46,563 nt of DNA from a virus (taxonomy: Duplodnaviria > Heunggongvirae > Uroviricota > Caudoviricetes), in the IMG/VR virus record IMGVR_UViG_2861038214_000001, positions 1-46,563 of that record; one strand, written 5' to 3'. This document shows positions 14,886-46,563 of this stretch, one piece after another (positions within the stretch are counted from its first letter, which is position 1; every line of letters begins with the position of its first letter). The notes below the pieces were generated by a model. That model made no database searches and had not been told where the DNA came from. It saw nothing but the letters and a program-made list of their open reading frames with translations. A program made the translations under genes and the position numbers.

Positions 14886-15553
14886 ATATCTACGAAAGAA
14901 TTGATGGCAGCAAATACCGAAATATTTGGGTAGTTGGCGATCTGCACGGATGCTACACGAACCTGATGAACAAACTGGATACGATTGGATTCGACAACAA
15001 AAAAGACCTGCTTATCTCGGTGGGAGATTTGGTTGATCGTGGTGCAGAGAACGTTGAATGCCTGGAATTAATCACATTCCCCTGGTTCAGAGCTGTACGT
15101 GGAAACCATGAGCAAATGATGATTGATGGCTTATCAGAGCGTGGAAACGTTAATCACTGGCTGCTTAATGGCGGTGGCTGGTTCTTCAATCTCGATTACG
15201 ACAAAGAGATTCTGGCTAAAGCTCTTGCCCATAAAGCAGAAGAACTTCCGTTAATCATCGAACTGGTGAGCAAAGGTAAAAAATATGTCATTTGCCACGC
15301 CGATTATCCTTGTGATGAATACGAGTTTGGAAATCCAGTTGATCATCAGCAGGTAATCTGGAACCGCGAACGAATCGGCAACTCACAAGACGGGATCGTG
15401 AAAGAAATCAAAGGCGCGGACACGTTCATCTTTGGTCATACGCCAGCAGTGAAACCACTCAAATTTGCCAACCAGATGTATATCGATACCGGCGCAGTGT
15501 TCTGCGGAAACCTCACATTGATTCAGGTACAGGGAGAAGGCGCGTGGGCATAA
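14882..15553 (+). CDS. Ser/Thr protein phosphatase (lambda PP / NinI-like metallophosphatase)
   Basis: ORF track; metallophosphatase motifs GDLHG, GDLVDRG, GNHE. Confidence 0.85.
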
Positions 15554-16062
15554 GAGAACTAAACCTCACCAAAGAACAGCATGAGTGGCTGAATGGCTGG
15601 CTTGAACTGTGGGGCGCATGGGTTTATTCAGGTCGTCTGGAAAAGCGCATGAGCAGCGTAATAGCGAAGTTCATGGAGAGCGTAGAGCCGGGAAGAGTTA
15701 TGACAAGGCCAATGTGTAATGATGATGATGGAATGTTGATTTCTCAGGTCGTCGATTCCGTCATGTACATTGACAAGAAAGCCTTTGGCATCCTCCTAAG
15801 CTACTACGCTCATGGTTCATCTAAGCGAGCAATTGCATCCTACTATCACGCGACTGCAAAGCCACGCAAGATGTGTGGACGTGGTGGCGAGGGATGGAGA
15901 AAACCTTCACTGGCAACCTGTAGAAACGAAATTGACGACATCCTGAAAGCGTCATTATTTGTTTTATACCAGCCAATGCAAAATGCTTTTAAAATGCGTA
16001 AACGTGTTGAGAAAGTTAAGCATGTTGCTGTTAAAAGACTTGACATGCAATTATCCATTTAG
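15544..16062 (+). CDS. Q: late-gene antiterminator Q-family protein
   Basis: ORF track; position upstream of lysis cassette; Q-like N-terminal region. Confidence 0.7.
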
Positions 16063-16570: not shown

Positions 16571-16894
16571 ATGAAGATGCCAGAAAAACATGACCTGTTA
16601 GCCGCCATTCTCGCGGCAAAGGAACAAGGCATCGGGGCAATCCTTGCGTTTGCAATGGCGTACCTTCGCGGCAGATATAATGGCGGTGCGTTTACAAAAA
16701 CAGTAATCGACGCAACGATGTGCGCCATTATCGCCTGGTTCATTCGTGACCTTCTCGACTTCGCCGGACTAAGTAGCAATCTCGCTTATATAACGAGCGT
16801 GTTCATCGGCTACATCGGTACTGACTCGATTGGTTCGCTTATCAAACGCTTCGCTGCTAAAAAAGCCGGAATAGAAGATGGTGGAAATCAATAA
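16571..16894 (+). CDS. S: class I holin, lambda S-type (107 aa, dual-start MKMPEK…)
   Basis: ORF track; sequence matches lambda S as I recall. Confidence 0.9.
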
Positions 16895-17354
16895 TCAACG
16901 TAAGGCGTTCCTCGATATGCTGGCGTGGTCAGAGGGAACTGATAACGGACGTCAGAAAACCAGAAATCATGGTTATGACGTCATTGTTGGCGGAGAGCTA
17001 TTCACTGATTACTCCGATCACCCTCGCAAACTCGTCACGCTAAACCCCAAACTCAAATCAACAGCCGCCGGACGCTACCAGCTTCTTTCCCGTTGGTGGG
17101 ATGCCTATCGTAAGCAGCTTGGCCTGAAAGACTTCTCTCCGAAAAGCCAGGACGCTGTGGCACTGCAACAGATTAAAGAGCGTGGCGCTTTACCGATGAT
17201 TGACCACGGTGATATTCGTCAGGCAATCGACCGTTGCAGCAATATCTGGGCTTCACTGCCGGGGGCTGGTTATGGTCAGTTCGAGCATAAGGCTGACAGC
17301 CTGATTGCAAAATTCAAAGAAGCTGGCGGAACGGTCAGAGAGATTGAGGTATGA
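16878..17354 (+). CDS. R: endolysin, lambda R-type lytic transglycosylase
   Basis: ORF track; sequence matches lambda R. Confidence 0.9.
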
Positions 17355-28822: not shown

Positions 28823-30217
28823 ATGGCAATTGTTAATATTAACGTGTCGGTGACGAATCCGCCGAAGCCCTCGCAGTTGTTAAAGTCCGGGGCGATGATT
28901 TCTATGGGCGGCACGACGCTGAATGCCGGTGAATATCAGCTGCTGACCAGTGAAACCGACCTGGCCGACATCCTTGCACCGGCGAAAACCATCTCGACGC
29001 TCGCCTGGGCTACTGGCGTGGTAACCGTCACGCTGGCTGCCGCTCACGGATGGACTAACGGTTCACAGGTCCCGGTGATCATCTCCGGCGCGACTCCGGC
29101 GGGGTACAATGGCGCCTATACCGCTACGGTGACAGGTGCCAACACCTTCACCTATCCGCTGACGGCCAACCCCGGCAGCGCAACGGCAATGGGTACGGTA
29201 AAAACGGTAGCACAGACCGAAATTTCCCAGATGAATACCTCGTTCTGGGCCCAGGGGAAAACGCGGGCAGTTTATGTGCTGGAACTGGGCGATGTGTCCA
29301 TGGAGGCAGCTGTCGCAGCGCTGACAACCTTCATTGCTGAAGACGTCTCCCTGGGTAACACCTACCAGAAGTTTTTCTCCTATCTGGTGCCGCGCGAATG
29401 GGATTCGGTCGATGAATTTAAAACCCTGACCAGCCTCTATACTTCGCCGGGAAGTCTGGTTTACTTCTTTGTCACCACAACGATCGCGACCTATGAAGCG
29501 TGGACAGCGACGAAAAACAAAACTGTCTTTGCTGGCGTCGAGGCTCCGGATATTCCGGCTAGCGAGTTTTCCATGGCCGGCCCGTTCCAGTCATCCCTGG
29601 CAAACGACCCGGGGTCGAGCAACATGGTGCCGCCGATGTCGTACCGCTTTATGTACGGCCTGACTGAGTATCCGCTGGAAGGCAACAGCGCACTGCTGAA
29701 ATCGCTTCAGGACAGCAACATCAACTACATCGGTACCGGCGCCGAAGGTGGTCTCAGTAACAAAGTGCTGTTCACCGGCCGCATGCTCGACGGTAACCCG
29801 TTCAACTACTGGTATTCGGTGGCGTGGACGGCGATCAACCTTGAGCTCGACCTGGCGAATGAAATCATCAACGGCTCCAACACGACCGTTAACCCGCTGT
29901 ACTACGAGCAGAAGGGCATTGACCGCCTACAGCGTCGCGCTCTGAAAACCTTGCGTAATGGCATCAGCTACGGGCTGATCCTCGGTCGCGTCATTGACAC
30001 GCAACTGACGCAGGAAGATTTCAACACCGAGTATGACAAAGGCACTTACGCCGGCAACGCCGTGATCAACGCCGTTCCGTTCAGTAACTACAACAGCCTG
30101 AACCCCTCCGATTATCAGGAAGGAAAATACAACGGGCTGAGCGCAGTCATGACGCCGCGCCGCGGCTTCGAATCCATCACGTTTAACGTGAACGTAACGA
30201 ACTTTGTAGGGGCGTAA
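28823..30217 (+). CDS. major tail structural protein, sheath-like (putative), carrying Ig-like module
   Basis: ORF track; size and position before a 145-aa tube-like protein; assignment by synteny only. Confidence 0.5.
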   Translation: MAIVNINVSVTNPPKPSQLLKSGAMISMGGTTLNAGEYQLLTSETDLADILAPAKTISTLAWATGVVTVTLAAAHGWTNGSQVPVIISGATPAGYNGAYTATVTGANTFTYPLTANPGSATAMGTVKTVAQTEISQMNTSFWAQGKTRAVYVLELGDVSMEAAVAALTTFIAEDVSLGNTYQKFFSYLVPREWDSVDEFKTLTSLYTSPGSLVYFFVTTTIATYEAWTATKNKTVFAGVEAPDIPASEFSMAGPFQSSLANDPGSSNMVPPMSYRFMYGLTEYPLEGNSALLKSLQDSNINYIGTGAEGGLSNKVLFTGRMLDGNPFNYWYSVAWTAINLELDLANEIINGSNTTVNPLYYEQKGIDRLQRRALKTLRNGISYGLILGRVIDTQLTQEDFNTEYDKGTYAGNAVINAVPFSNYNSLNPSDYQEGKYNGLSAVMTPRRGFESITFNVNVTNFVGA

Positions 30218-31234: not shown

Positions 31235-31357
31235 ACTGGGCGTCTAATGAGGGCTTCTGGCAGGTGATAAGGGAGATCACCGGCGAGGAGTATGCCAGCC
31301 CGGCGCAGTACCGGCAGCGCTACCTTCTCGCCGCGCTCAAAGAAAGAGGTTTCTTCA

Positions 31358-33238
31358 ATGGTAGCTAAGTCGATCGTCGACATTGACGTAAATGACGACA
31401 AGTTTGTCGCGTTTATGGAAAGGTTTCGCGAGTACCAGAGCGCGCTGGATGATTTACCGGAAGCCTGGCGGGTAGCTGCCGTTGGTATTGGAGAAAGCAG
31501 CAAGCAGACCGAAAAGGCCAAAGGTGAGGCGAAGGAGTTAGGCGCGGAGTTTAATGCCGTGGCCGAGGCCATTCTGACCATCAACAGCGGTATCGATCGG
31601 CTCAATACCAACCTGGAAGACTCGAAGAAAAAGCAGGACGAATTCAACAAAAGTACTCGCTCTGCGAAGGGCTTCCTCAGCGATGCGACGAAAGACGCTA
31701 AATCGCTGGCAGGGCATATCAAGGAAGCGACGGCCAGCCTTCTGTCATGGGGTGGCATTGTCGGGATATTTACCGGCGTCCTTGGCGTTGGCGGCCTGTT
31801 CGGCATCAACCGGCTGGCTGCCACCACCGGTGCCCAGCGGTTTACTTCTCTCGGGCTTGGGACGAGTATCGGCGCACTTGATTCCACCGCCATAAACTAC
31901 CAGAAAGCACTCGGTAATCCGGCGGGTACGCTGGGCGCTATCCGCGATTCGCAAATGGACCTGTCGAAGCGCTGGACGTTTCAGGCGATGGGGATTAACA
32001 ACCCCGACCAGGACCCGGCCAAACTGCTCCCGCAGATGATCCGTAATGCGCGCGATATCTTCGTGCAGAACGGCAGCACGCTGCAGGGCGCACAGGCGCA
32101 CGGCCTGACAAACTTCTTTACGCTGGATGACCTGAACCGCTTCAAAAACATGAGCGATGAGGAGATCACCGCCATGGAGAAGCGCGCGCAGCAGGATGCG
32201 CGCATGTTGCAAATTACCGACCAGCAGGCGCGCCAGTGGCAGGATTTTAACGTTCAGCTCGACTACAGCAGCCAGAGCATCAGAAACACGTTTGTGCGCG
32301 GCCTGGGTCCACTCACGCCGCAGCTGAGCAAACTGTCTGATGCGCTGTCAGGCGCGATCGATACCGTCCTGAAATCCCCAGAACTCGGCAAGTGGATTGA
32401 TGGTCTGGCGCGCGGTATTGAAAGATTTGGCAACTACCTGTCTTCTCCTGAATTCACCAGTGATGTTCTCAGTTTCATGGATGGTGTTAAAAGGCTTGGA
32501 CAGTCTGTTTCTCGATTAATAGACCTATTCGCTGGAAAAATTAGCCTTTCAGAGTTTATGTCTGGCTCGTCCAGTATTCTTGGCAGTTCAACAAGGGAAG
32601 ATGCTGAAGGTAGTCAGCCCTACGTTCCGGGTAGTGAGAGTGATCCGCGCGTTTGGGGTGTTCTTAAATGGGGTAAAATGGCATCAGGTGTCGCCCCCAC
32701 GCAGTATGATGATTATTTTTCCGAGGCTGCTAAAAAGTACAATGTCGATCCTCGATGGCTAAAAGCCATCGCTGCGGGGGAATCCTCTTGGGATCAGAAC
32801 GCTGTTAGTAAAGCGGGCGCAAAAGGGTTAATGCAGGTGATGCCTGGCAACTTCCAGCCGGGAGAAAATCCATTTGACCCGCGGGACAACATCATGGCTG
32901 GCGCCCGAGTTTTCTCCTGGGCGATGCAGAGCGCGAATGGTGATCTCGACGAAGCGCTGCGTTATTACAACGGCGGAAGCCGCCGCGAGAGTGCAGAAAA
33001 TAGGGCTTATCCCGGCAGGATCAGGGAAAAGTATGCTGCGATGTATGGGGCGCCGAAGAACAATGACGCTTCTGGCGTCGATAGTTCAGAAATTGCCAAA
33101 AATACCTCGAAAACTAACCAACTCCTGCAGCAGATCGTTGATGGGAAAGGCGGCAGAGGCGGGAGCGGTGACGTTGTTATTTATAACAACACCGGCGGGA
33201 ATGCCGTGGTAACTTCAGCGCAATTGGGGGCGAGGTAA
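31358..33238 (+). CDS. tape measure-like protein with C-terminal lytic transglycosylase (SLT) domain
   Basis: ORF track 31292..33238 with start refined to ATG after AGAGG SD; hydrophobic Gly-rich segment; SLT motif AAGESSWDQNAVSKAGAKGLMQVMP. Confidence 0.7.
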   Translation: MVAKSIVDIDVNDDKFVAFMERFREYQSALDDLPEAWRVAAVGIGESSKQTEKAKGEAKELGAEFNAVAEAILTINSGIDRLNTNLEDSKKKQDEFNKSTRSAKGFLSDATKDAKSLAGHIKEATASLLSWGGIVGIFTGVLGVGGLFGINRLAATTGAQRFTSLGLGTSIGALDSTAINYQKALGNPAGTLGAIRDSQMDLSKRWTFQAMGINNPDQDPAKLLPQMIRNARDIFVQNGSTLQGAQAHGLTNFFTLDDLNRFKNMSDEEITAMEKRAQQDARMLQITDQQARQWQDFNVQLDYSSQSIRNTFVRGLGPLTPQLSKLSDALSGAIDTVLKSPELGKWIDGLARGIERFGNYLSSPEFTSDVLSFMDGVKRLGQSVSRLIDLFAGKISLSEFMSGSSSILGSSTREDAEGSQPYVPGSESDPRVWGVLKWGKMASGVAPTQYDDYFSEAAKKYNVDPRWLKAIAAGESSWDQNAVSKAGAKGLMQVMPGNFQPGENPFDPRDNIMAGARVFSWAMQSANGDLDEALRYYNGGSRRESAENRAYPGRIREKYAAMYGAPKNNDASGVDSSEIAKNTSKTNQLLQQIVDGKGGRGGSGDVVIYNNTGGNAVVTSAQLGAR

Positions 33239-35970: not shown

Positions 35971-36299
35971 GAACCTATGGCCGAAACTCTGAGGGGAAGT
36001 GGGTCCTGGTGGAAACCGACGAAAATGGGTTTAATGACTCGGTGTATTTGACCACCCTGATCCAGAATCTGAAACTGGCGCCTCAGGAGTCGCCATTTTA
36101 CGCCAATAACGGAATCCCGGCCGCCGGGTCGGTGATCCAGCAAATCCTGCCGACGTATTACGTAAACCGTATTCAGAAACAGTTCAGCCAGTATTTTTCC
36201 TCGCTGCAGATTGCGCTGATCAGCGACGACCCGCCTGTTTATAACATCTCGGCAATCACAAACGCAGGTTCAAAAATAATTACACAGGTGGCCGTATGA
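35967..36299 (+). CDS. small baseplate protein (110 aa)
   Basis: ORF track. Confidence 0.5.
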   Translation: MRTYGRNSEGKWVLVETDENGFNDSVYLTTLIQNLKLAPQESPFYANNGIPAAGSVIQQILPTYYVNRIQKQFSQYFSSLQIALISDDPPVYNISAITNAGSKIITQVAV

Positions 36300-37714
36300 G
36301 CGATTTACCAGTCAGCTATACGTCAGCAGGCCCGGTTCCTCTGACGCCGGAAGAGCTAAGAGCACAGCTCGTTTCTCAGGCAATTGCGTTATCTCCGGGA
36401 CTCACCACGGATTTGCCTGGCTCTCTGATTGAAGACGTGGCCAGCACTGATGTCGGCGCACTTATCGTCTGCGATCAGGCGAGGGTTGACCTTATTAACT
36501 CGGTGGGGCCGCTAAAGGCTAACCTGTCCATGCTGGAGCTTCTTGCACAGCAGGCTGGTATCCCTGGGCAGAAAACGGCTGGCACAACAACAGTCCCGGT
36601 TCAGTTTTCCGGCCCGGCGGGATTTGTTATCCCACAGGGGTTTATTGTTTCAGATGGGACCTATACCTATTCAGTCAGTGATGCGACGATTATCTCGTCG
36701 TCTGGAGTATCTGCCAGCGTATCATGCGAGGGAACGGAGACCGGAACCTGGGCGGTGCCGGTAAATACGGTTAACCAGATCATATCCAGTCTACCGTCTG
36801 ACGTCACCATCACCTGCACCAACCCGATCGCCGGCACTCCGGGTGCTGACCCGGAAACGAACTATCAGTTTCGTGATCGCGTATGGCAGGCGCAGATGGC
36901 CACCGTTCAGGGATATCCTGGATTTATCCGGCAATATCTCACCAGCCTTGATAACGTGCAGGCGCGCCTGGTTTCTGTCATTCAGGACGGGGATAAGTGG
37001 ATAGTCATGTGTGCCGGCGGTGATATTTACGATATTGCTGGCGCGCTCTATAAGTCTGCGGGGGATATCAGCAGGCTGAAAGGGTGTTCACTGAACGTAA
37101 CGGGGATCACGAATGCAAATCCTGGTGTCGTCAGCACAGACCTGACTCATGGTTACACTGACGGCCAGGTTATCCGGATCACTGGCGTTACCGGGATGAC
37201 GGGCATCAATGACGTTCCTCTGACCGTGACGGTGCTGTCTCCTCACACTTTTTCCATCGGGATTGATACCACTTCATCCGGGACTTGGGGAGGCGGCGGC
37301 GAGGTGACACCGAACGTCAGAAACAATACCGTGACGGTGAATGACTGGCCTGATAACTACGTGATCCCGTTCGTGACCCCATTGCTGCAGCGGGTCACAG
37401 TGACGTATCAGTGGGGCACTGAAAGCGTTAACTACCTGACTGATGCCACGGTCGCCTCTTTGGTCTCGGCGCCTACGATTCAGTATGTGAATGGCATATT
37501 CGCCGGTAAACCGCTGAACGTTAACAACCTGAAAGATGCATTCTTGCAGGCGATTAACTCGACAATCGACATGGGGCTGATCAGCACTCTAAACGTCGTG
37601 GTCACCGTCAATGGTGTGATAACGCCACCGGATGCCGGGACGAATATCATCAGCGGGGATAAGTTCAGTTATTTTTATATCGCGTCGGATGGCGTGATCG
37701 TAACAGGGGCGTAG
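36296..37714 (+). CDS. baseplate J-like protein (putative), contains Ig-like module
   Basis: ORF track; size/synteny; shares module with 24580 and 28823 proteins. Confidence 0.5.
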   Translation: MSDLPVSYTSAGPVPLTPEELRAQLVSQAIALSPGLTTDLPGSLIEDVASTDVGALIVCDQARVDLINSVGPLKANLSMLELLAQQAGIPGQKTAGTTTVPVQFSGPAGFVIPQGFIVSDGTYTYSVSDATIISSSGVSASVSCEGTETGTWAVPVNTVNQIISSLPSDVTITCTNPIAGTPGADPETNYQFRDRVWQAQMATVQGYPGFIRQYLTSLDNVQARLVSVIQDGDKWIVMCAGGDIYDIAGALYKSAGDISRLKGCSLNVTGITNANPGVVSTDLTHGYTDGQVIRITGVTGMTGINDVPLTVTVLSPHTFSIGIDTTSSGTWGGGGEVTPNVRNNTVTVNDWPDNYVIPFVTPLLQRVTVTYQWGTESVNYLTDATVASLVSAPTIQYVNGIFAGKPLNVNNLKDAFLQAINSTIDMGLISTLNVVVTVNGVITPPDAGTNIISGDKFSYFYIASDGVIVTGA

Positions 37715-37715
37715 C

Positions 37716-38420
37716 ATGCTGGACGATATCATCCGGTCGTATATGTATACGCAATACAACGACGATGACAATCTGCGGGCGTTTTTTACTGCGTATAACT
37801 CGATGGCGCAGGGCATTTATGACTGGATGGTTAATGCCAACCTGCCGATTTTCATCGGTGACTACAACACTGGAGACCAGCTCCGGTGGATTGCCCATGG
37901 CATCTATGGCGTGTTGCCGCCGGTGATTTCCAGCAGCGATCAGCAGGAGATAGGCCCATATAACACCTTCGAATTTAACCAGCTGGCATTCAATGAGTAC
38001 CGGGTGATTGACCAGTCGAACCAGGTTGTTGTCTCCGATGACCTTTTTAAGAGGATCATGACCTGGAATTTTTATAAAGGTGACGGCTTCTATTTCTCTA
38101 TCCCATGGATAAAGCGGCGTATTCTTCGGTTCCTGTTGGGAGTGAATGGCACTGACATTCTCAATGACCAGCGGTGGAGTATATCGATCCAGTTTGTGGA
38201 TGGCGGTATCGTGATATCCATCTATAAGGGGCGGCGTAGGTTCACGCGTAGCGCCATCTACAACGCATCGGCCTATAACTCCAGGAAGTACAACCAGAAG
38301 GATACGGCCTTTGTGATCACCGAGGATTTCGAGTTCGCCATTTTCTTCAAGCAGGCCATGGATAGCGGCCTGCTGCACATGCCGTTCTATCAGTCCATTT
38401 CGGTGGAAATTATTGATTGA
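37716..38420 (+). CDS. tail protein (234 aa), putative fiber attachment
   Basis: ORF track; synteny. Confidence 0.5.
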   Translation: MLDDIIRSYMYTQYNDDDNLRAFFTAYNSMAQGIYDWMVNANLPIFIGDYNTGDQLRWIAHGIYGVLPPVISSSDQQEIGPYNTFEFNQLAFNEYRVIDQSNQVVVSDDLFKRIMTWNFYKGDGFYFSIPWIKRRILRFLLGVNGTDILNDQRWSISIQFVDGGIVISIYKGRRRFTRSAIYNASAYNSRKYNQKDTAFVITEDFEFAIFFKQAMDSGLLHMPFYQSISVEIID

Positions 38421-38447
38421 AGCACAGTTCCTGTGGTGTAGAATTTA
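38416..38447 (+). promoter_or_regulatory. candidate sigma70 promoter (TTGATT … TGTAGAAT) flanked by 8-bp inverted repeat CTGTGGTG/CACCACAG
   Basis: hexamers and inverted repeat seen directly upstream of the moron ORF. Confidence 0.35.
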
Positions 38448-38478
38448 TCGCATCCACCACAGCAAGGTTATCATTAAA

Positions 38479-39180
38479 ATGAAAAAATTGGCCCTTCTCG
38501 GATTATTGTCAGTTTCACTATGCACGGGTACTTCCCTTGCAGCTTCATTTGATTGCTCTAAAGCAAAAAGCTTTGCTGAGAAAACAATATGTGAGAACCC
38601 TAAGCTTTCAAAGGATGATGATGACTTAAAATATTTATATGCAAACGCTAAGGCATACACCAAAGACCGGAAGGCGTTTTCTGAGATAACTAAAGCTCTT
38701 TTGGATTCAAGAGAGCGTTGCAGTGATCTCAAGTGTGTTGATGAATGGTATGATACTGCGTTCGCAATTTACGGTGCCATAAAGGAAACTGGCATACCAG
38801 AAACCAATGGCGTAAATGATATATTAAAGAATGAAGGTGCAACAAAACCTTCAGAAATTAAAGAAAAACCCACTGAGATTACAACGCCATCAGCCAAGAA
38901 GCCGAAGGAAAGCAAAAAAGATTTTAGCTTGTACGATTCAAAGGACAGAGCCGCTCCAGTTGAACATAACGCAATATTATACAAAGACACTCCAGAGGCA
39001 TTCGAGTTTATAGATACACTTGTTGGGTTTGTCAGACAAAGCTCTTACAAATGTGACTCTGTTAGCTCTTTCATACCGATGGTTTCATCGAATGGCTTTA
39101 CGCTCGCATGTAATAAATTTAGCTACAAATATGAAATTAAAAATAACGGCGGAAATGTCTCTGTTTCTGTAGATAATTAG
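38479..39180 (+). CDS. secreted DUF1311 (LprI-like N-domain) protein, AT-rich moron
   Basis: ORF track 38413..39180 trimmed to signal peptide MKKLALLGLLSVSLCTGTSLAAS; paired Cys pattern typical of DUF1311; low GC; own terminator. Confidence 0.65.
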   Translation: MKKLALLGLLSVSLCTGTSLAASFDCSKAKSFAEKTICENPKLSKDDDDLKYLYANAKAYTKDRKAFSEITKALLDSRERCSDLKCVDEWYDTAFAIYGAIKETGIPETNGVNDILKNEGATKPSEIKEKPTEITTPSAKKPKESKKDFSLYDSKDRAAPVEHNAILYKDTPEAFEFIDTLVGFVRQSSYKCDSVSSFIPMVSSNGFTLACNKFSYKYEIKNNGGNVSVSVDN

Positions 39181-39229
39181 ATCAAAGCCCACGCCAGTGG
39201 GATTTCATAAATAACACATTGATAACATC

Positions 39230-39254
39230 AAACCCGCTTCGGCGGGTTTTTTTT
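39230..39254 (+). terminator. intrinsic terminator (AAACCCGC-TTCG-GCGGG + T8)
   Basis: seen in sequence after moron. Confidence 0.7.
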
Positions 39255-39275
39255 ATGCCTAAATCCGGAGGAGAC

Positions 39276-41423
39276 ATGGCACTAACCCTTTTGGCTACAA
39301 ACAACGCAGAAAGCACGCTGGCTTCTGCTATCAGCGCAACCGACACGTCGCTGATCGTTAGCGCTGGAACTGGTGCCGAGTTCCCTGATGCTGTGGCAGG
39401 CGAGAGTTATTTTAAGCTCACTCTCACCGATGCCGCCACCGGCTCACAGGTTGAGATCGTGAACGTGACAGCTAAGGCTGGAGACATCTTCACGATTGAG
39501 CGTGCGCAGGAAGGAACGCTGGCGCGTGCGTGGGCGGCCAATGATATGGTTGCCAACATGATGACGGCGGACACGCTGAACATTATCGCTCAATATTCCC
39601 AGCAGGCAGCTGCATCAGCAGCACTGGCTGAAGAGTATGCAGATAACGCTTCTGACTACGCACAGAATAAGTTCACGTTCTATAAGACTGCCAGCGATCC
39701 TGATGGCACCATCGCAGGGCTGGCAGCAACTACTGACGGCCAGTCTTTCTGGGTAGCCCAGGGTCCGGATGCGCTTTCTTCTGCATGGCAGTATCAAAAC
39801 AAAGCAGGCGTGGCCGTATTGCAGGCGAAGCAGCCGGGTACAGCGGCCATAACAGGGACAACCCGCGAGTTTCCGACGCTGGCTGCGGCACAGGCTGATG
39901 CTGACGCAGGGAATATACAACCAGGAGCGAAATGCTGGGTGACAAGCGCGGATGATAGCTCTCTTGCAAATGAATATATAAACAACTCCGGAACTTTGCA
40001 GCCTACAGGAGTAATCTCTCCTTCTTCAAAAACAATCGATAATAAAATTAATGAACGCCTCGTCCCAGGTGAATACAGGCCTGGTTATTTCCCGGCCTTC
40101 TTTGACAGGAATGGTATGGTGCCAGCATGGTTTGATGGCGGCAAATTTGATGTGGCAGGACTGGGGCCAAATGTTACACAGGTTGTTTCTGAAATTCCAA
40201 ACGAATGGGCCCAGAAGTTTATCCCGCAAGGAGACTTTTCACCTTATTACTTTCCTTTTTTATATGACCAACAAGGGAACGTATATGCTTGGTTTAATGG
40301 TGGGCTATTCGATGCTCCAGGTCTTGGCCCGGTATTGCAGGAATATGTCAAAAACCTGGTGTCTGGTGGGGAAGTTGATGCGGTACGTTCCTTCATCGAA
40401 GGAGATCAGTACAAGTTCCTTTTCAAAAATAGCCGTATTTTTGCTGGCCAGTCTACCAGCCTAAACATTGCTTTTACCGGCGATTCGTGGACAGAGAAAA
40501 ACACCATTCCTCAGTCTTTAATTAATATTCTTGGTGGTACATACAAAGACCCTGGGTGGATTAGTTGTTCAAACAGAACAGATGGTGTCATGTCTGGAAT
40601 ATCACCAGTAACCGCAACAAACTTTACGAAATATGACGGTGGCAGCAATAACACGAACATTCCGCCGTATGGCTGTGGCCCTGATGGCAACGGATACTAC
40701 AACAACAACACTGTTGGTTCGCTCGTATGGACGGGCGTGACCGTAACAAATCTTTCGGTATTTTACTATGATGGGTCTGGAACGTTCACCATCACCATCG
40801 ACAGCAATGCACCTGTAACAATCACGGGAGGGAATACAGGGACTGCCAAGAAGTATGATTTCAGCGGACTTAGCGCTACTGCACATACGGTGACAATCCA
40901 AAGCACCGGTACTGGTGTTGTTTCCATTCTTGGTATGTATGGTAAAAATAACTCAATATCATCAGGGGTGACTGTATCCAGGATGGGTAATGGAGGAGCA
41001 TTTGCAAGTGACTATTTCAACTTTTCATCATGGATAAAGCCAGTAGCTCAATACCTTGATATAGACCTCCTTTTTATTATTCTTGGAACGAATGACTTCC
41101 GGATGAGTCAGGGGCTAGCTGAGTACAAATCTGGGATTATTGAAATAATTACTAAATATAGAAGCGCAACTCCTGATATTTGCATTTGCCTTATGTCCCC
41201 TGCACAGTGTAACGCCACAGGAACACCCGCACTGTCAGAATACGATAAAGCAATGAGGGAAATAGCGGTTGAATATAATGTAAATTTCATTAGTGGTTAT
41301 CAATTATTCCCCAAAGTGTATAGCAGTTCAGGAGGTGCGTGGGAAGATGCCTTGCATCTTAGCGCCTTGGGCGCATATGTACTAACGAGAAAGATCAAAA
41401 AAGAATTTTTCCTGGGAGCTTAA
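39276..41423 (+). CDS. tailspike/tail fiber with conserved N-terminal anchor domain and C-terminal SGNH/GDSL esterase domain
   Basis: ORF track 39219..41423 trimmed to ATG after GGAGGAG SD; GDS motif (IAFTGDSWTE) and DxxH (WEDALHL) near C-terminus. Confidence 0.75.
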   Translation: MALTLLATNNAESTLASAISATDTSLIVSAGTGAEFPDAVAGESYFKLTLTDAATGSQVEIVNVTAKAGDIFTIERAQEGTLARAWAANDMVANMMTADTLNIIAQYSQQAAASAALAEEYADNASDYAQNKFTFYKTASDPDGTIAGLAATTDGQSFWVAQGPDALSSAWQYQNKAGVAVLQAKQPGTAAITGTTREFPTLAAAQADADAGNIQPGAKCWVTSADDSSLANEYINNSGTLQPTGVISPSSKTIDNKINERLVPGEYRPGYFPAFFDRNGMVPAWFDGGKFDVAGLGPNVTQVVSEIPNEWAQKFIPQGDFSPYYFPFLYDQQGNVYAWFNGGLFDAPGLGPVLQEYVKNLVSGGEVDAVRSFIEGDQYKFLFKNSRIFAGQSTSLNIAFTGDSWTEKNTIPQSLINILGGTYKDPGWISCSNRTDGVMSGISPVTATNFTKYDGGSNNTNIPPYGCGPDGNGYYNNNTVGSLVWTGVTVTNLSVFYYDGSGTFTITIDSNAPVTITGGNTGTAKKYDFSGLSATAHTVTIQSTGTGVVSILGMYGKNNSISSGVTVSRMGNGGAFASDYFNFSSWIKPVAQYLDIDLLFIILGTNDFRMSQGLAEYKSGIIEIITKYRSATPDICICLMSPAQCNATGTPALSEYDKAMREIAVEYNVNFISGYQLFPKVYSSSGGAWEDALHLSALGAYVLTRKIKKEFFLGA

Positions 41424-41425
41424 TA

Positions 41426-42175
41426 ATGCCGATATCAGCTATTTATATAGACGCCACTCTTCCAGTTATCTCTGGAATGAAAACTTTATCTGACTTTGAT
41501 GTGTCAAACTGGTTTATTGGCCTGCCAACCACAGGTGCAACTCCTTATGCTGGTTTCTATTTCGGGGACCCGGTAACAGATATTACTTACGACTCATACG
41601 ATCAAAATAACCCGGCGGTGATTAACGGGACAGTGAATAACACTGGCGGGTTTATTACCGTTAATCCTAGTAACTATCTGGATACAAGGAAGAAAGCAAC
41701 ACTTAGTGTTACCATTTGCGGAGTGGTAAAAAGGAATGCCGCAGCTGGACTGAACTCTCATATGATTGCGGATTATGCAGGAAGCGGCTCTACGGCCAGT
41801 GGCTTTTCTATAGGCTTTGACACCACCGGGCGATTGTTCTGTGTAGCTCAAAATACCGGGCAGTCTGCTGTGTATGCTTATGCTGATTTTCCTTCATCGA
41901 TAGCTGCAGGAAGTCTATTTGCTTTTGTGGCCACTGTTAATCAGGGAGTGGTGGCAATCGATATTTTCAACGCCGCGACCTCCACACTGGTGTCAGCGAC
42001 ATCAACCCTGCCAGGGACAAGGGTTGCTGGCACAAATAACGTACTGATGGGTAGAAAGGTGGATAACAACGTAGAAACATCCAGCAAGTATATTAAGTCA
42101 ACATTGCTAATGAACGGCTCTTTAACTTCTGCTGAAAAAATATCTGTCTCTCAATTTTTACTGGCGATGCAATAA
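41426..42175 (+). CDS. hypothetical protein (249 aa) downstream of tailspike
   Basis: ORF track; Thr/Gly/Asn-rich; possible lectin-like beta-sandwich (weak). Confidence 0.5.
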   Translation: MPISAIYIDATLPVISGMKTLSDFDVSNWFIGLPTTGATPYAGFYFGDPVTDITYDSYDQNNPAVINGTVNNTGGFITVNPSNYLDTRKKATLSVTICGVVKRNAAAGLNSHMIADYAGSGSTASGFSIGFDTTGRLFCVAQNTGQSAVYAYADFPSSIAAGSLFAFVATVNQGVVAIDIFNAATSTLVSATSTLPGTRVAGTNNVLMGRKVDNNVETSSKYIKSTLLMNGSLTSAEKISVSQFLLAMQ

Positions 42176-42179
42176 AGGT

Positions 42180-42419
42180 CTATGCTCTCAGATGTTTGAC
42201 GCATAAGAAGAATTGCAACTTACCACCATCAGTAAGCTCCACCATTATCGTGTTAGTGCCATCTGAAATTTCAGTCCATCCATGTGACTGTAGGACCTCG
42301 TAGTCGATCCCAGGCTTGCTGAGCTTGAGGCCCAGGCCATCGGATTTACGTAGTATTCTGCGAACAAGAGTGTCACTTTTTGTACTCATTTTGGTGGCGG
42401 AGTGTCTTGGATAAAACAT
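42180..42419 (-). CDS. small basic hypothetical protein (70-79 aa), divergent from LexA-box operon
   Basis: ORF track; no convincing SD at either candidate start. Confidence 0.3.
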   Translation of the reverse strand: MFYPRHSATKMSTKSDTLVRRILRKSDGLGLKLSKPGIDYEVLQSHGWTEISDGTNTIMVELTDGGKLQFFLCVKHLRA

Positions 42420-42517
42420 GTATTGATATCAATTATTTGTGTGAAAAGCAATTTAAGAGGCTACCGGAAGATAAAACAAAGTCATCATCAAGTATTGATC
42501 CGACTCTTTGATGAAAC

Positions 42518-42537
42518 TACTGTATATAAAAACAGTA
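42518..42537 (+). promoter_or_regulatory. LexA (SOS) box TACTGTATATAAAAACAGTA
   Basis: perfect CTGT-N8-ACAG with AT-rich spacer, about 18 nt upstream of the 42555 ATG. Confidence 0.7.
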
Positions 42538-42554
42538 TCAATCAGAGGCAGATC

Positions 42555-42794
42555 ATGCACCGTCAGTCAGACATCGCCGCGGCTTTCCGCGAGTCCATTT
42601 TGCGCAGTTCCAAGGGGTTCCAGTACCTTCACACCCGAGACTTCGTTACCGCACTGCTCCTGCGCGGCATCCACTTATCCGAGGTGGAGGCGAACTCCTG
42701 GATCGCACGCGAGCAGACGTATTTCGTCGATAAGACGCCGGACCATAGCGAAAACAGGCTGTGGATGATGGCCAACATGGGGAGGGTTCTGTAA
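42555..42794 (+). CDS. hypothetical protein (79 aa), first gene of LexA-box operon
   Basis: ORF track 42402..42794 trimmed to ATG with AGAGG SD. Confidence 0.55.
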   Translation: MHRQSDIAAAFRESILRSSKGFQYLHTRDFVTALLLRGIHLSEVEANSWIAREQTYFVDKTPDHSENRLWMMANMGRVL

Positions 42795-43111
42795 TGGGCT
42801 TTCCATCACCCGCGACGGACTACACGGAACAGCGATTAACGGTTAACTCGATCTGCAATGTCGGGCCAAATACGCGCCTCTTCGAGCGATCAGGCGGTTA
42901 TGTTGTGCTGGATATCTCCCTGAAGCCATCACAAGGCAGTCAGGTTCTGATCCAGCACGGAGGCGGGACAGAGCTTGCCACGCTGAGAGGAAGGTCGCTG
43001 ATTACCGAAGATGGCGAGGCGATCGAGGGCGAAGCCCTGGACGATGTTGCGGTCATCGGGGTCGTGACATTTACTATCTGCGATGTTCGCTCTGATAATT
43101 CTATTATTTAA
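42794..43111 (+). CDS. UmuD'-like (S24 peptidase-fold) protein lacking N-terminal arm and catalytic Ser/Lys (105 aa)
   Basis: ORF track 42761..43111 trimmed to ATG (TAATG overlap, GGGGAGGG SD); GFPSPATDYTEQR aligns to UmuD GFPSPAADYVEQR; SGGYV replaces SGDSM. Confidence 0.6.
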   Translation: MGFPSPATDYTEQRLTVNSICNVGPNTRLFERSGGYVVLDISLKPSQGSQVLIQHGGGTELATLRGRSLITEDGEAIEGEALDDVAVIGVVTFTICDVRSDNSII

Positions 43112-43122
43112 CTGGGGTATAT

Positions 43123-44154
43123 ATGGCGCTGAAGCTATTAGCCAATAATAACGCAAAGAGTGTGCTCGCTGCGGGTATTAGCGCGTCCGCTACCGTTATT
43201 ACCGTGGGTACTGGAGCGGGGTCATTATTCCCTTCCCCTGTATCTGGGCAGAGTTATTTCAAATTAACGATAACCGACGCGGCCACGAAAACAATTTCTG
43301 AAATTATGCACGTCACGTCTGTATCCGGTGACGTGATGACAGTAATTCGTGGTCAGGAAGGAACTACGGCACGCGTATGGTCAACGAATGACATTGTCGC
43401 GAATTTAATGACCGCCGGATCATTGTTATCATTCCTGCAGATCAGCAATAACCTGTCAGAAATTAAAGATGCCGGTGAGGATGCGATAAATGAAGCCCGT
43501 TATAACCTCGGAATATCTGATTCCTCTGGTTTTGTCGGGCGTTCACTTGGCGCTCCAAAAGCTTTCTATGCAAACGGAACCTATACGCGATCTCCTCTGG
43601 CCCGTTATGCAAAAGTAACGTTGACCGGTGCCGGTGGCGGCGGTGGCGGCTGCCAGGCCTCCAACAATACAGAAACCTTCTCCGGTGCTGGCGGCGGCGC
43701 GGGCGCGACCATTATCGTATGGGTTGACCTGTCTGCTGCCAGTTCTTACGCGATTACTGTCGGCAAGGGTGGTAAGGGCGGAGTTGGCGCAGTAAGTGGT
43801 GCGGATGGTGGTGCTACCTCGTTTGCCAGCCTGTTCTCAGCTCCTGGCGGGAAAGGCGGCGTGAAGTCAGGCGTGTCCAATACCGCCGGCGGCGCCGGAG
43901 GTACGGCGGCGACCGGAGATATCAGGATCAACGGTGGTACCGGCTCAGATGGACAGACAGGCTCAAGCCTTCTGACGGGCAACGGCGGGGCGTCGTATTT
44001 TGGCGGCGGTGGCCGGGCGGGTTCTCAGGCCGGTATTGCTGGCGCAGCTCCCGGATCCGGTGGTGGTGGCGCGTATGACCTCGGGTTTACCGGTACGGCA
44101 TTTACCGGTGGTGATGGTGCTACTGGCATGGCGATCGTGGAAGAATTCGCGTAA
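43123..44154 (+). CDS. second tail fiber/receptor-binding protein: same N-terminal anchor domain, Gly-rich C-terminal domain
   Basis: ORF track; N-terminal about 100 aa align with the 39276 protein. Confidence 0.7.
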   Translation: MALKLLANNNAKSVLAAGISASATVITVGTGAGSLFPSPVSGQSYFKLTITDAATKTISEIMHVTSVSGDVMTVIRGQEGTTARVWSTNDIVANLMTAGSLLSFLQISNNLSEIKDAGEDAINEARYNLGISDSSGFVGRSLGAPKAFYANGTYTRSPLARYAKVTLTGAGGGGGGCQASNNTETFSGAGGGAGATIIVWVDLSAASSYAITVGKGGKGGVGAVSGADGGATSFASLFSAPGGKGGVKSGVSNTAGGAGGTAATGDIRINGGTGSDGQTGSSLLTGNGGASYFGGGGRAGSQAGIAGAAPGSGGGGAYDLGFTGTAFTGGDGATGMAIVEEFA

Positions 44155-44158
44155 TGGC

Positions 44159-45316
44159 TTACACTCCTGCACGACCATCGATGTAATCAGCCCACCACTG
44201 CATCATTTCTCTGCGCTTATCGAGATACTGCGCATGGTTGTAAATACCGCGCACAGATCCGCCGTTGGCATGTGCCAGTTGCACTTCAATAGCGTCAGCA
44301 GGCCATTCGTGCTCGTTCATAATTGTGCTGAATTCATGCCTGAATCCGTGACCGCTTTCCAGACCCTCATAGCCGATTTGTTTGATCACAAGCAATACCG
44401 CGTTCTCGCAGATTGGCTTCTTCTTATCGTTGCGACCGGCAAAAACAAACTCTGATACTGGTTTAGTGATTGAGCTTAGCGTAGTGAGAAGTTCAACCAC
44501 CTGGTCTGACATAGGAACCACATGAATTTTGCGACCCTTCATCACACTGGCGTCGATGGTGATAATCCTGTTTTCAAAATCGACGTTCTTCCATTGCATG
44601 GAACGAAGCTCTTTCGTTCTTAGGGCTGTATAGCGTAAAACCTTGGTCGCAATGAGCGATACGATGCTTCCTGAAAATGTTGCCAGTGCTTTGTTAAATG
44701 CCGGGATCTGGTCTGCAGGAAGAAACGGGAAGTTTTTCTTGCGGTATCCCTTCATGGCGTCAGCAAGGTCAGGTGCCGGGTTATATTTAGCCCTACCAGT
44801 GACAATAGCGTAACGGAAAACCTCGCCACATCTTCTGCGGGCTTTGTTGGCTCGCTCCATTGCACCGCGATCTTCAAATCTGCGGATTACTTCCAGCAGT
44901 TGCATCGGCTCAATATCCAGAATCTCGAGACCGCCGATGATGGGTAAAATGTCGTCATCAAACATTTTGGCAAGTTCAGTCGCATACCCTACAGACCACA
45001 CTTGCTTCTTGTGCTCGTACCATTCCTTGTAAATGGCACTAAAGGAGTTGTTGTTAGACGAAGCCTTTTTCGCTTTTACCGGATCTATGCCAACCGAGAT
45101 GTCTTTCCTCGCAGTCCATGCTTTATCCCTTGCCTCCTGCAAAGTCATAAGCGGATATTTTCCGACAGTCAGGATTTTCTCCTTACCGTCAATCTTGTAG
45201 CGAAGCTGCCATACCTTTTTCCCTGACACAGGGACATAAAGGTACAGGCCATTACCATCGAGAAGGCGGTATGGTTTTTCTTTCGGCTTTGCTGCTTCAA
45301 TCTGCTTAACGGTGAG
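44159..45316 (-). CDS. intS: tyrosine integrase, P4-type (IntS-like, 385 aa from MLTVKQ…)
   Basis: ORF track 44159..45355; DUF4102 arm-binding N-domain; catalytic R…HxxR…Y region; start chosen at internal ATG by analogy to IntS (GTG at 45355 is the alternative). Confidence 0.85.
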   Translation of the reverse strand, partial: LTVKQIEAAKPKEKPYRLLDGNGLYLYVPVSGKKVWQLRYKIDGKEKILTVGKYPLMTLQEARDKAWTARKDISVGIDPVKAKKASSNNNSFSAIYKEWYEHKKQVWSVGYATELAKMFDDDILPIIGGLEILDIEPMQLLEVIRRFEDRGAMERANKARRRCGEVFRYAIVTGRAKYNPAPDLADAMKGYRKKNFPFLPADQIPAFNKALATFSGSIVSLIATKVLRYTALRTKELRSMQWKNVDFENRIITIDASVMKGRKIHVVPMSDQVVELLTTLSSITKPVSEFVFAGRNDKKKPICENAVLLVIKQIGYEGLESGHGFRHEFSTIMNEHEWPADAIEVQLAHANGGSVRGIYNHAQYLDKRREMMQWWADYIDGRAGV

Positions 45317-45480
45317 CATGGGTAAAAATCCGGTGGGTAAAATTATTTTATCCACTTTTTACCCGTCATGGAGTGCGGCTGTCAACGATCTGACGCGAAC
45401 CATTACGAACTGTGAATCTATGGAAGGCTTGCTATTCAGGGGATTTTGCGGACTGGTACGGATGGGAGCGAACTGATAAA
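45317..45480. promoter_or_regulatory. att arm / intS promoter region with GGGTAAAA direct and inverted repeats
   Basis: three GGGTAAAA(A) copies around the int start; candidate integrase arm-type or RDF sites. Confidence 0.4.
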
Positions 45481-45556
45481 TGGTGTCCCCTGCAGGAATC
45501 GAACCTGCAATTAGCCCTTAGGAGGGGCTCGTTATATCCATTTAACTAAGAGGACA
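45481..45556 (-). tRNA. argW: tRNA-Arg (anticodon CCU)
   Basis: minus strand reads GTCCTCTTAGTTAAATGGATATAACGAGCCCCTCCTAAGGGCTAATTGCAGGTTCGATTCCTGCAGGGGACACCA; cloverleaf with CCU anticodon, encoded CCA. Confidence 0.9.
45495..45510. repeat. 16-bp segment of argW T-arm duplicated at 221..236 (candidate att core)
   Basis: exact match seen in sequence. Confidence 0.5.
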
Positions 45557-45630
45557 ATGCGGCATGAGTATACCCGCTAATGGAGTGCGGGGTAAGTACG
45601 CTGCCGCTCGATTGCTTAAACCCTCGCCAT

Positions 45631-46563
45631 TTATGCCGGGTTTTTATAATTTTTCTTAATGTTTTCCGCACGTTCTGCTTTTTGGCGTGCTTCTGCTTTA
45701 CGCTTATTGCTCATGTCGTTACGAATCTGTGCATGACTCATTAACGCGAAGATAAAGGTGCCGCCGCAGATGTTCCCCGCTAAAGTAGGTAGTGCGAAGG
45801 GCCAGATGAAATCGCTCCAGTGCAGCGTACCGTTAAACACCAGATAGAGGATTTCAACAGAACCGACCACGATATGGGTGGTGTCACCCAGGGCAATAAG
45901 CCAGGTCATCAATATAATCACCACAATCTTTGCCGCACCCGCTGCAGGAAACATCCAAACCATAGTGGCGATCAGCCAGCCGGAAATGATCGCGTTGGCA
46001 AACATCTCGCTGGGGGTGTTCTTCATCACATCCATGCCGATTTTGACAAATGCATCGCGAGTTTCTTCATTGAAGATAGGCATATATTCAAATGCCCACG
46101 CCGCAATACCTGTCCCGAGAATATTACCCAGCAGCACGACGCCCCATAACCGTATAAGTAAGCCGACGTTGCTCATTGTCGGTTTTTGCATGACGGGTAG
46201 TACCGCAGTCACGGTATTTTCGGTAAATAATTGCTGGCGGGCCATAATGACGATAATAAAACCAAAGGTATAACCGAGATTCTCCAGCAAGAAGCTGCCC
46301 GGCACACCTTCCAGTTCGACTTGAAATATCCCTTTTGCCAGTAACGAAGCGCCCATCGACAGACCCGCCGCAATGGCTGACCACAGTAGCGCCATTGCGT
46401 CGCGTTCCAGCTCTTTTTCACCATCCTGGCGGATATGCTCATGAATTGCCATCGCCCGGGAGGGGAGTCGGTCTTCATCTATTTCTATTTTTTTGCCGCG
46501 CTCTTTTTCTTCGCTCTCAACTTCAATTTCGTCGCTGTGTTGATCAATTTTGTCGTTGTCCAT
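45631..46563 (-). CDS. yfdC: formate/nitrite transporter (FNT) family inner-membrane protein (host gene)
   Basis: ORF track; multi-TM FNT-like protein; conserved position next to argW in E. coli. Confidence 0.8.
   Translation of the reverse strand: MDNDKIDQHSDEIEVESEEKERGKKIEIDEDRLPSRAMAIHEHIRQDGEKELERDAMALLWSAIAAGLSMGASLLAKGIFQVELEGVPGSFLLENLGYTFGFIIVIMARQQLFTENTVTAVLPVMQKPTMSNVGLLIRLWGVVLLGNILGTGIAAWAFEYMPIFNEETRDAFVKIGMDVMKNTPSEMFANAIISGWLIATMVWMFPAAGAAKIVVIILMTWLIALGDTTHIVVGSVEILYLVFNGTLHWSDFIWPFALPTLAGNICGGTFIFALMSHAQIRNDMSNKRKAEARQKAERAENIKKNYKNPA

Follow-up and report, generated by a model that had tools for sequence, protein, structure and literature searches.

The 46,563-nucleotide (nt) stretch of DNA analysed here (IMG/VR record IMGVR_UViG_2861038214_000001), called the window below, is a complete prophage. 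It is of the Felixvirales type, resembles the phages Chronis and RothC, and has lambdoid regulation and lysis genes. Its nearest cultured relatives are the Klebsiella phages vB_Kpn_Chronis and RothC/RothD; phages of this type are temperate and gut-associated, and the order Felixvirales has been proposed for them (bioRxiv 10.1101/2024.12.02.626457). Between a 234-amino-acid (aa) baseplate-cluster gene and the tailspike gene, the prophage carries a short cassette (38421-39254) with one gene for a protein of 233 residues. The cassette region is 100 % identical to the chromosome of Escherichia coli WI1 (NZ_LT838196.1).

The base composition of the cassette is different from that of its surroundings. 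The guanine-cytosine (GC) content is 0.39-0.41 over positions 38350-39250 and 0.48-0.56 in the flanks. The cassette gene itself has a GC of 0.383 and a third-position GC (GC3) of 0.342, as compared with 0.49-0.54 and 0.61-0.68, respectively, in the two tail genes upstream. An AT-rich insertion between a baseplate or tail gene and the tailspike gene had been noticed in a preliminary description of this DNA, and these values confirm it. Together with the replacement of the cassette by other genes in related genomes, the foreign composition indicates that the cassette is a horizontally acquired accessory gene (a moron) in a recombination-prone slot, and not a structural gene of the tail.

The open reading frame (ORF) extends from 38413 to 39180, and the gene had been thought to begin at 38413. 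The frame is correct and the start is not. With the TTG codon at 38413, the gene would overlap the stop codon of its upstream neighbor, and 22 residues would precede the signal peptide; the sensible start is the ATG at 38479, which the Prokaryotic Genome Annotation Pipeline (PGAP) also uses for the identical gene of WI1. The cassette protein matches phrog_33858 with an E value of 5.8e-112. A scan of the cassette against Rfam gave only matches far below threshold, driven by the terminator (rsmX, 26.6 bits with a gathering threshold of 56, and Leu_leader). The gene is not new as such: RefSeq has an automatic annotation of it, and it can be placed in known categories (moron, DUF1311 protein). The source of interest is the widely distributed, undescribed family to which the C-terminal domain of the protein belongs, and the slot in which genes for envelope proteins are exchanged.

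Table 1. Features of the cassette, followed by other genes of the window
Feature	Position	Strand	Remarks
Candidate sigma-70 promoter	38417..38444	+	-35 TTGAAG at 38417-38422; 16-nt spacer; -10 TAGAAT at 38439-38444
Inverted repeat	38428..38465		TTCCTGTGGTG / CACCACAGCAA; arms of 11 nt with one mismatch, 16 nt between arms
Weak Shine-Dalgarno sequence, AAGG	38464..38467	+	11 nt before the ATG; read from the sequence
Coding sequence, putative periplasmic two-domain protein	38479..39180	+	233 aa + stop; WP_142262418.1 in E. coli WI1
Predicted Sec signal peptide	38479..38544	+	aa 1-21/22; cleavage between SLA and A or between LAA and S, just ahead of SFDC
N-domain	38545..38793	+	aa 23-105; four-helix, four-Cys, divergent DUF1311/LprI-type; predicted local distance difference test score (pLDDT) 85-91 (AlphaFold2)
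Linker	38794..38919	+	aa 106-147; disordered, K/E/P/T-rich; recombination junction between alleles
C-domain	38920..39177	+	aa 148-233; beta-alpha-beta4, conserved C192 and C211; large unnamed family
Intrinsic terminator	39230..39254	+	AAACCCGC-TTCG-GCGGGTTT and T-run; ~20 nt before tailspike ATG
234-aa baseplate-cluster gene	37716-38420		phrog_8212; its stop codon is the left edge of the cassette
Tailspike gene	39276-41423		ATG at 39276; SGNH/GDSL esterase C-terminus
CI-like S24 repressor	8739-9386	-	
Q antiterminator	15544-16062		
S holin	start 16571		
Endolysin	16878-17354		
Rz	start 17351		
Contractile tail sheath	28823-30217		
648-aa tail protein	31292-33238		SLT lytic-transglycosylase domain, aa 474-571
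Baseplate hub	start 34220		
Baseplate-J protein	36296-37714		

The slot upstream of the tailspike gene

Both flanks of the cassette are present, with 95-97 % identity, in about 42 E. coli genomes, and the slot between them has at least six states: 1) an LprI-like gene in the form found in the window, called allele A (one genome); 2) an LprI-like gene in a second form, allele B (six genomes); 3) a gene for a lipoprotein of 210 aa; 4) a gene for a lipoprotein of 172 aa; 5) a gene for a secreted protein of 133 aa on the minus strand; and 6) a version of 300 nt with an unannotated hydrophobic ORF of 92 aa, also on the minus strand. About 35 of the E. coli genomes, as well as RothC and RothD, have other cargos in place of the cassette. 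In RothC the flanks are ~97 % identical to those of the window, and the slot is filled by an unrelated ORF of 133 aa on the opposite strand that begins with a signal peptide. All occupants of the slot are signal-peptide proteins, lipoproteins or membrane proteins, and the alternative cargos have no match in Pfam or PADLOC. The edges of the slot are constant: on the left it is always the stop codon of the upstream gene, and on the right always a hairpin and a T-run that precede the tailspike ATG by about 20 nt. These observations show that the virion does not need the cassette gene and that other genes for envelope proteins can take its place.

The position of the gene among the tail genes, in the same orientation as its neighbors, could mean that the product is a structural component of the tail or baseplate or a tail-assembly factor. 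The protein has a predicted cleavable signal peptide, however, and its gene has a foreign GC content and is missing from RothC/RothD and most of the related E. coli prophages, which share the 95-97 % identical flanking tail genes. A structural role is therefore extremely improbable and was rejected.

Yersinia phages and prophages have homologues of full length in this slot; those of Serratia and Salmonella prophages are found at the prophage end, after the tail fiber and its chaperone. Another Salmonella prophage (L027/L028, 6001-6603) has a 38 %-identical homologue of full length in the antisense direction between Baseplate_J and the preceding baseplate gene, with only 18 nt to the divergent start codon. 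With this orientation and spacing, the antisense gene needs a promoter of its own, and this promoter has to be situated within the Baseplate_J coding region. No promoter match of 9/12 positions was found within ~240 nt upstream of this homologue.

The hairpin of the terminator downstream of the cassette gene (39230..39249) has a stem of 8 base pairs (bp) with a folding energy of -12.8 kcal/mol (z = -3.0) and is followed by eight T residues up to 39254. The stem is the same in related slots and the loop varies (TTCG in the window, CTCG in RothC, ATAA in Yersinia); one locus (L021) has another stem. The terminator lies directly 3' of the homologous gene in four of four lineages, and it is still present beside cargos that are unrelated or on the opposite strand. 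The terminator is thus a conserved feature that marks the right-hand end of the slot and does not belong to the cassette gene in particular. A small GC hairpin, CCCACGCCAGTGGG (39188..39201), 8 nt after the stop codon, is kept in alleles A and B and scored as terminator-like on the minus strand.

On the upstream side, the pair of hexamers that had been taken for the promoter (TTGATT...TGTAGAAT) has a spacer of 20 nt and is replaced here by the consensus-compatible pair given in Table 1. The latter candidate agrees with the consensus at 9 of 12 positions and has no extended -10 TG in register; its -35 hexamer overlaps the stop codon of the upstream gene. It is kept in Chronis and in STEC346, where the -10 hexamer is TAGTAT. 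Comparable 9/12 matches are found in the short upstream gap of the Yersinia and Salmonella homologue loci, and the match at the Serratia locus overlaps the ATG and is hence doubtful. The upstream gap of ~60 nt holds a promoter-like 9/12 match in three of four lineages, for which the joint chance, as estimated from the densities in shuffled sequences, is roughly 1e-3.

The candidate promoter overlaps an inverted repeat, which has a perfect core of 8 bp (CTGTGGTG at 38431-38438 and CACCACAG at 38455-38462) and arms that are identical in Chronis and STEC346. The preliminary description had this repeat bracketing the promoter. The repeat is real, but what it encloses is no more than the -10 hexamer and the likely start of transcription. 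Its fold (-10.9 kcal/mol, z = -1.7) is by itself not significant. It may serve as an operator or form a 5' hairpin.

The cassette had been described as a self-contained moron with its own promoter and strong terminator. Its accessory nature is supported by the observations above, and the terminator is a real one. The terminator is not evidence for a self-contained unit because it is also present with a cargo on the opposite strand; it belongs to the slot, and the promoter match, taken alone, is not above chance (see below).

The weakness of the promoter evidence also bears on the time at which the gene acts. The gene might be an accessory of the lytic cycle, expressed mainly from late transcripts antiterminated by Q, and its product might work in the periplasm of the infected cell, where it could block superinfection or lysis from without at a late stage, or tune the endolysin or the SLT-domain tail protein of the phage itself. 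It has the same direction as the late operon, there is no terminator between the upstream tail genes and the cassette gene, the prophage encodes a Q antiterminator, and Chronis, which was isolated as a plaque-forming phage, carries the gene. On the other hand, separate promoter-like sites are found in three lineages, one homologue is antisense to its own late operon, and foreign composition combined with presence/absence polymorphism is typical of morons expressed from the prophage. A role mainly in the lytic cycle is considered unlikely.

The tailspike gene is a mosaic of a conserved N-terminal adaptor region with a GC of 0.56 and a swapped C-terminal SGNH/GDSL esterase region with a GC of 0.435 (PF13472, E 2e-10). 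Between the tailspike gene and the integrase there are low-GC ORFs (41426-42800), which comprise a 249-aa ORF (phrog_34046, of unknown function), a minus-strand ORF of 79 aa and an ORF at 42402-42794; a glycine-rich-domain protein follows at 43123-44154. The ORFs in this region are likely to be further accessory genes. The Baseplate-J protein also matches the eukaryotic-type domain 'ubiquitin-activating enzyme E1 FCCH' (PF16190, E 4e-14), and PGAP names the protein accordingly. ARAGORN places a tRNA-Ala(CGC) at 9106-9188 (minus strand) within the ORF of the CI-like repressor, which is probably a false positive.

The prophage ends with an IntS-type integrase beside a tRNA-Arg(CCT) integration site, and the region of the integration site (44159-46563) adjoins a gene of the formate/nitrite transporter family. 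In a related Yersinia prophage (L012, 8702-11204) the integrase likewise adjoins a Form_Nir_trans gene, and the STEC346 relative adjoins torT. The integration sites are thus partly conserved across genera.

Architecture of the encoded protein

The cassette protein has 43 homologues, all from Enterobacterales or metagenomes, and none of them has a precomputed Pfam domain. The cassette protein itself has no match above threshold in Pfam, NCBIfam or PADLOC, and searches of PDB sequences with profiles of the full-length protein, the N-domain and the C-domain found no match. A Pfam match of aa 1-19 to Dr_adhesin is an artefact of the signal peptide, and a match to GapR is noise.

The presence of a signal peptide, which had been proposed before, is well supported. 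The N-terminus has a K/R-rich n-region, a hydrophobic core and small residues at positions -3 and -1, and this n-h-c pattern is retained in 40 of 41 homologues despite their varying sequences. A lipoprotein was considered and rejected: there is no lipobox, the residue at -1 of Cys15 is Leu, Cys15 is absent from most homologues, and the cleavage motif is of the AxA type. The lack of conservation of Cys15 and the Leu at -1 argue for cleavage by signal peptidase I. The features of the signal peptide, together with six conserved cysteines, lead to the prediction that the protein is exported by the Sec pathway and is soluble and disulfide-bonded in the periplasm.

Four of these cysteines (C26, C38, C81 and C86) belong to the N-domain and are invariant in 23 homologues. 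The preliminary description had assigned this paired-cysteine pattern to DUF1311. The pattern is indeed there, but a direct match to the family is not: PF07007 (gathering threshold 22 bits) matches neither the full protein nor the isolated N-domain, even at E <= 10, and among 16 family members only three have sub-threshold matches, the best with an E of 0.0085. The relationship becomes apparent through two other proteins. The most distant homologue (P0043) passes the PF07007 gathering threshold with 24.5 bits, and its match begins at the cysteine of the SFDC motif. A second protein (P0060) is matched by LprI over the full length (E 2.6e-12), and this match starts at the same motif, SFDCAKA. 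Alignment of the N-domain profile with hhalign gave a probability of 98.1 % and an E of 9.5e-14 over 74 columns for the domain of P0043, and 95.4 % and 2e-8 over 54 columns for that of P0060. A word-indexed search with the LprI domain of P0060 found no canonical PF07007 proteins. The N-domain is a divergent DUF1311/LprI-type domain, the likeness of which holds only at the level of profile and probably of fold. It also has a low similarity to NCBIfam NF049887 (A1S_1983, putative colistin resistance protein), with 18.5 bits against a cutoff of 150 and over aa 3-92 only; P0043 matches this model from end to end with 59.7 bits, which is likewise under the cutoff. In other proteins the N-terminal module is joined to at least four different C-terminal domains.

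The family name LprI has led to the suggestion that the protein protects the peptidoglycan of the lysogen from host (C-type) lysozyme. According to Sethi et al. (2016), as cited in PMC7933661 and PMC8914354, LprI of Mycobacterium tuberculosis is a lipoprotein that inhibits lysozyme. The identical protein of WI1 and many homologues are named 'lysozyme inhibitor LprI family protein' by PGAP, the N-domain is related to PF07007, and the protein is predicted to be periplasmic. The name is, however, inherited from the domain label. The M. tuberculosis protein also has an MliC domain (PF09864), a fold known from lysozyme inhibitors, which is absent here (no Pfam match at E <= 10). In the only DUF1311-only protein of an enterobacterium that has been tested, the periplasmic ScwA of Salmonella, no protection from lysozyme was seen (PMC7933661). 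The earlier claim of lysozyme protection goes back to the family name alone and is not retained; inhibition of lysozyme is quite improbable, and the name "lysozyme inhibitor" in the databases should be read with caution.

The preliminary description overlooked that the protein has a second, uncharacterized domain at its C-terminus, and that this domain is the more conserved part. The C-domain was modeled alone with 43 sequences, which gave a pLDDT of 94 and a predicted template modeling score (pTM) of 0.84. It is a cystatin/PepSY-like domain and comes from a large uncharacterized family. When its profile was searched against 1.84 billion representative proteins, 643 clusters matched at E <= 1e-3. 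The place of the domain in these relatives is invariably the C-terminus, and many of them are proteins of 95-100 aa that consist of a signal peptide and this domain alone. Not one of the relatives has a name or a Pfam or NCBIfam assignment. The gene neighborhoods of the stand-alone proteins show no conserved partner. One such protein, of A. baumannii (L009, 4001-4468), is encoded in an integrase-bearing island, where its gene adjoins a helix-turn-helix (HTH) regulator and also a gene pair of SIR2_2 and HerA/DUF87, an arrangement that resembles a defense system. The C-domain is also fused to Sel1-repeat proteins (P0060, P0048 and P0068). A protein of 4040 aa (P0086) matches the last 30 positions of the C-domain profile 15 times, which may be a repeat artefact.

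Since P0060, an otherwise unrelated protein, joins an LprI domain, Sel1 repeats and the same C-domain, the combination of LprI and C-domain recurs, and the two domains are probably coupled in function.

The two alleles of the cassette gene show how differently the parts of the protein evolve. Allele A is that of the window, and allele B is found in Chronis, STEC346 and five other E. coli genomes. The C-domains of the two differ by 5 % in nucleotide sequence and in one residue only; the proportions of differing synonymous and nonsynonymous sites (pS and pN) are 0.245 and 0.005. The N-domains are 49 % and the linkers 27 % identical, with saturated synonymous sites; the linker has a pLDDT below 50 for aa 110-146. 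The gene is therefore a recombinant mosaic, with a nearly identical C-domain next to a diverged N-domain and linker, and its C-domain is under strong constraint.

A possible role in the lysogen and comparison with known systems

By analogy, the cassette protein might be an immunity-like binder of an incoming peptidoglycan hydrolase that acts in the periplasm. This function is favored here, with somewhat less than even confidence, because there are three precedents for it: the DUF1311 immunity proteins of type VI secretion systems (T6SS), ScwA of Salmonella, and Spackle of phage T4.

In the lysogen, the cassette gene would be transcribed from its own weak sigma-70 promoter, and the inverted repeat over the -10 hexamer would possibly control this promoter. 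The terminator of the slot would stop transcripts that come from the cargo or from upstream, and would keep the tailspike gene silent. During lytic growth, late transcription modified by Q would read through both the cassette gene and the terminator. The protein would bind and neutralize a peptidoglycan hydrolase that reaches the periplasm from outside, which would benefit the lysogen. Two kinds of target might come into question: 1) a muramidase-type T6SS effector, for which the protein would have the role of an orphan immunity protein; 2) the tail-associated lytic transglycosylase of a superinfecting phage, which would be a Spackle-like exclusion. The prophage itself encodes a Q antiterminator, an SLT-domain tail protein and an endolysin, which counts in favor of hydrolase binding. 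In phages of this type the 648-aa SLT-domain tail protein is the peptidoglycan hydrolase carried by the virion, and such proteins are a candidate target class for periplasmic exclusion proteins.

A number of findings weigh against this function. Promoter matches of 9/12 positions were found twice in 2.5 kb, compared with 3.7 expected from shuffled sequences, so that the match upstream of the cassette gene is alone not above chance. The gene also points in the same direction as the late operon, so that its main time of action may be lytic growth. None of the approximately ten loci examined (the window, L001-L004, L011-L017 and L024-L028) has a T6SS effector as a neighbor, and the defense-system models of PADLOC do not match the cassette protein. 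ScwA modulates the level of an endogenous hydrolase, and inhibition of an incoming enzyme is not among its shown roles (PMC7933661). Finally, the identical tailspike WP_001229353.1 is found beside another cargo in E. coli JNQH497, and the LprI-like cargos are found with at least three different tailspikes. The cargo and the receptor specificity of the tailspike are therefore not linked.

This independent assortment also affects the possibility that the protein masks a receptor and excludes superinfecting phages in the manner of Cor and Llp, in connection with the neighboring receptor-binding protein. In several backbones the gene adjoins a tailspike or tail-fiber gene, as llp and cor do (for Llp of T5, see PMC9586334), and two of the alternative cargos of the slot are lipoproteins. 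The cassette protein, however, has no lipobox and should therefore be a soluble protein of the periplasm, and the receptor-binding domain of the tailspike changes independently of the cargo. Masking of a receptor is therefore very unlikely.

Instead of an incoming enzyme, the protein might alter the level or activity of the host's own lytic transglycosylases or peptidases (e.g. MltD), in the way of ScwA, and thereby affect the lysogen in its envelope homeostasis, antibiotic tolerance or virulence. ScwA, which controls MltD levels (PMC7933661), is a precedent. A DUF1311 (YecT) gene surfaced in a transposon sequencing screen of Pseudomonas aeruginosa with beta-lactams (PMC7038268), and the similarity of the N-domain to the A1S_1983 family, far below the cutoff as it is, points in the same direction. 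The architecture of ScwA is nevertheless different (275 aa, all-helical, with the LprI domain at the C-terminus), and the family of the cassette protein is tightly tied to prophage tail modules and not to chromosomal loci. Such a role is unlikely, to the same degree as that of a lytic-cycle accessory. Binding of an incoming hydrolase thus ranks first among the functions considered; it is followed by these two, and then by inhibition of lysozyme, receptor masking and a structural role.

The speculation can be taken one step further. The gap before the tailspike gene of Felixvirales prophages might be a dedicated exchange site, insulated by a terminator, for envelope-acting protection genes, and the LprI-like protein might represent a new class of two-domain periplasmic inhibitors, in which the DUF1311 module and the C-domain jointly capture the incoming hydrolase. 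Although this proposal has to be regarded as rather doubtful, a two-domain inhibitor would, if true, give a function for the first time to a family of domains that has over 600 representative clusters.

The Felixvirales are recently recognized, widespread temperate phages of gut Enterobacteriaceae. The genes that they add bear on the fitness of E. coli and Klebsiella lysogens, on the host range in phage therapy through superinfection exclusion, and on competition between bacteria. The cassette protein is a compact candidate with interchangeable alleles, and the hypervariable slot can be mined for exclusion or immunity functions.

The classical morons of lambdoid phages include those of HK97 and HK022 and the lambda genes bor and lom. 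The cassette is similar to them in being an extra gene of deviating composition between conserved late genes, with a promoter-like site upstream, a terminator downstream and an envelope protein as its product. It differs in that the terminator is fixed in the slot and is common to unrelated and opposite-strand cargos; expression from the prophage is what we infer here.

When compared with the proteins that define PF07007 (PP0307, 3gi7; the Burkholderia protein 6ar7; YecT of E. coli and P. aeruginosa), the cassette protein lies below the detection limit of Pfam. It belongs to a distinctive subgroup with the motif SFDCxKAKSFAEKTIC and is fused to an unrelated C-terminal domain. With LprI of M. 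tuberculosis it shares a DUF1311-type domain and the export to the cell envelope, which is predicted here. The mycobacterial protein is a lipoprotein with an MliC domain, whereas the cassette protein has neither a lipobox nor MliC and has the cystatin/PepSY-like domain instead.

DUF1311/LprI proteins have been proposed or shown to be periplasmic immunity proteins against T6SS effectors that attack the cell wall (PMC12981562, PMC12135965, bioRxiv 10.64898/2026.08.01.741415). Like Etsi4 of enterohemorrhagic E. coli (PMC12981562), Psi15 of Pantoea (bioRxiv 10.64898/2026.08.01.741415) and the neighbors of WHIX effectors (PMC12135965), the cassette protein is a DUF1311-type protein with a predicted periplasmic location. 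The genes of those immunity proteins adjoin their cognate effectors, whereas the loci described here have no effector, so that the cassette gene would be at most an orphan immunity gene.

ScwA (SL1344_0490 of Salmonella) is a periplasmic DUF1311 protein that depends on DsbA, is encoded by a horizontally acquired gene of low GC, and controls the levels of MltD (PMC7933661). The cassette gene resembles it in GC content and in its probable horizontal origin, and its product in the DUF1311-type domain and the predicted location; ScwA has two disulfides (PMC7933661). Apart from the difference in architecture mentioned above, ScwA is encoded at the chromosomal ybaP-copA locus and has no detectable full-length homology to the cassette protein.

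Spackle (gp61.3) of T4 is a periplasmic inhibitor of the tail lysozyme and blocks superinfection (PMC7677548, PMC7650644). The cassette protein has no similarity to Spackle in sequence or fold. It is, like Spackle, a small phage-encoded protein with a signal peptide and a predicted periplasmic location, and the prophage that carries it has, in its SLT-domain tail protein, an enzyme of the kind that such an inhibitor would have as its target.

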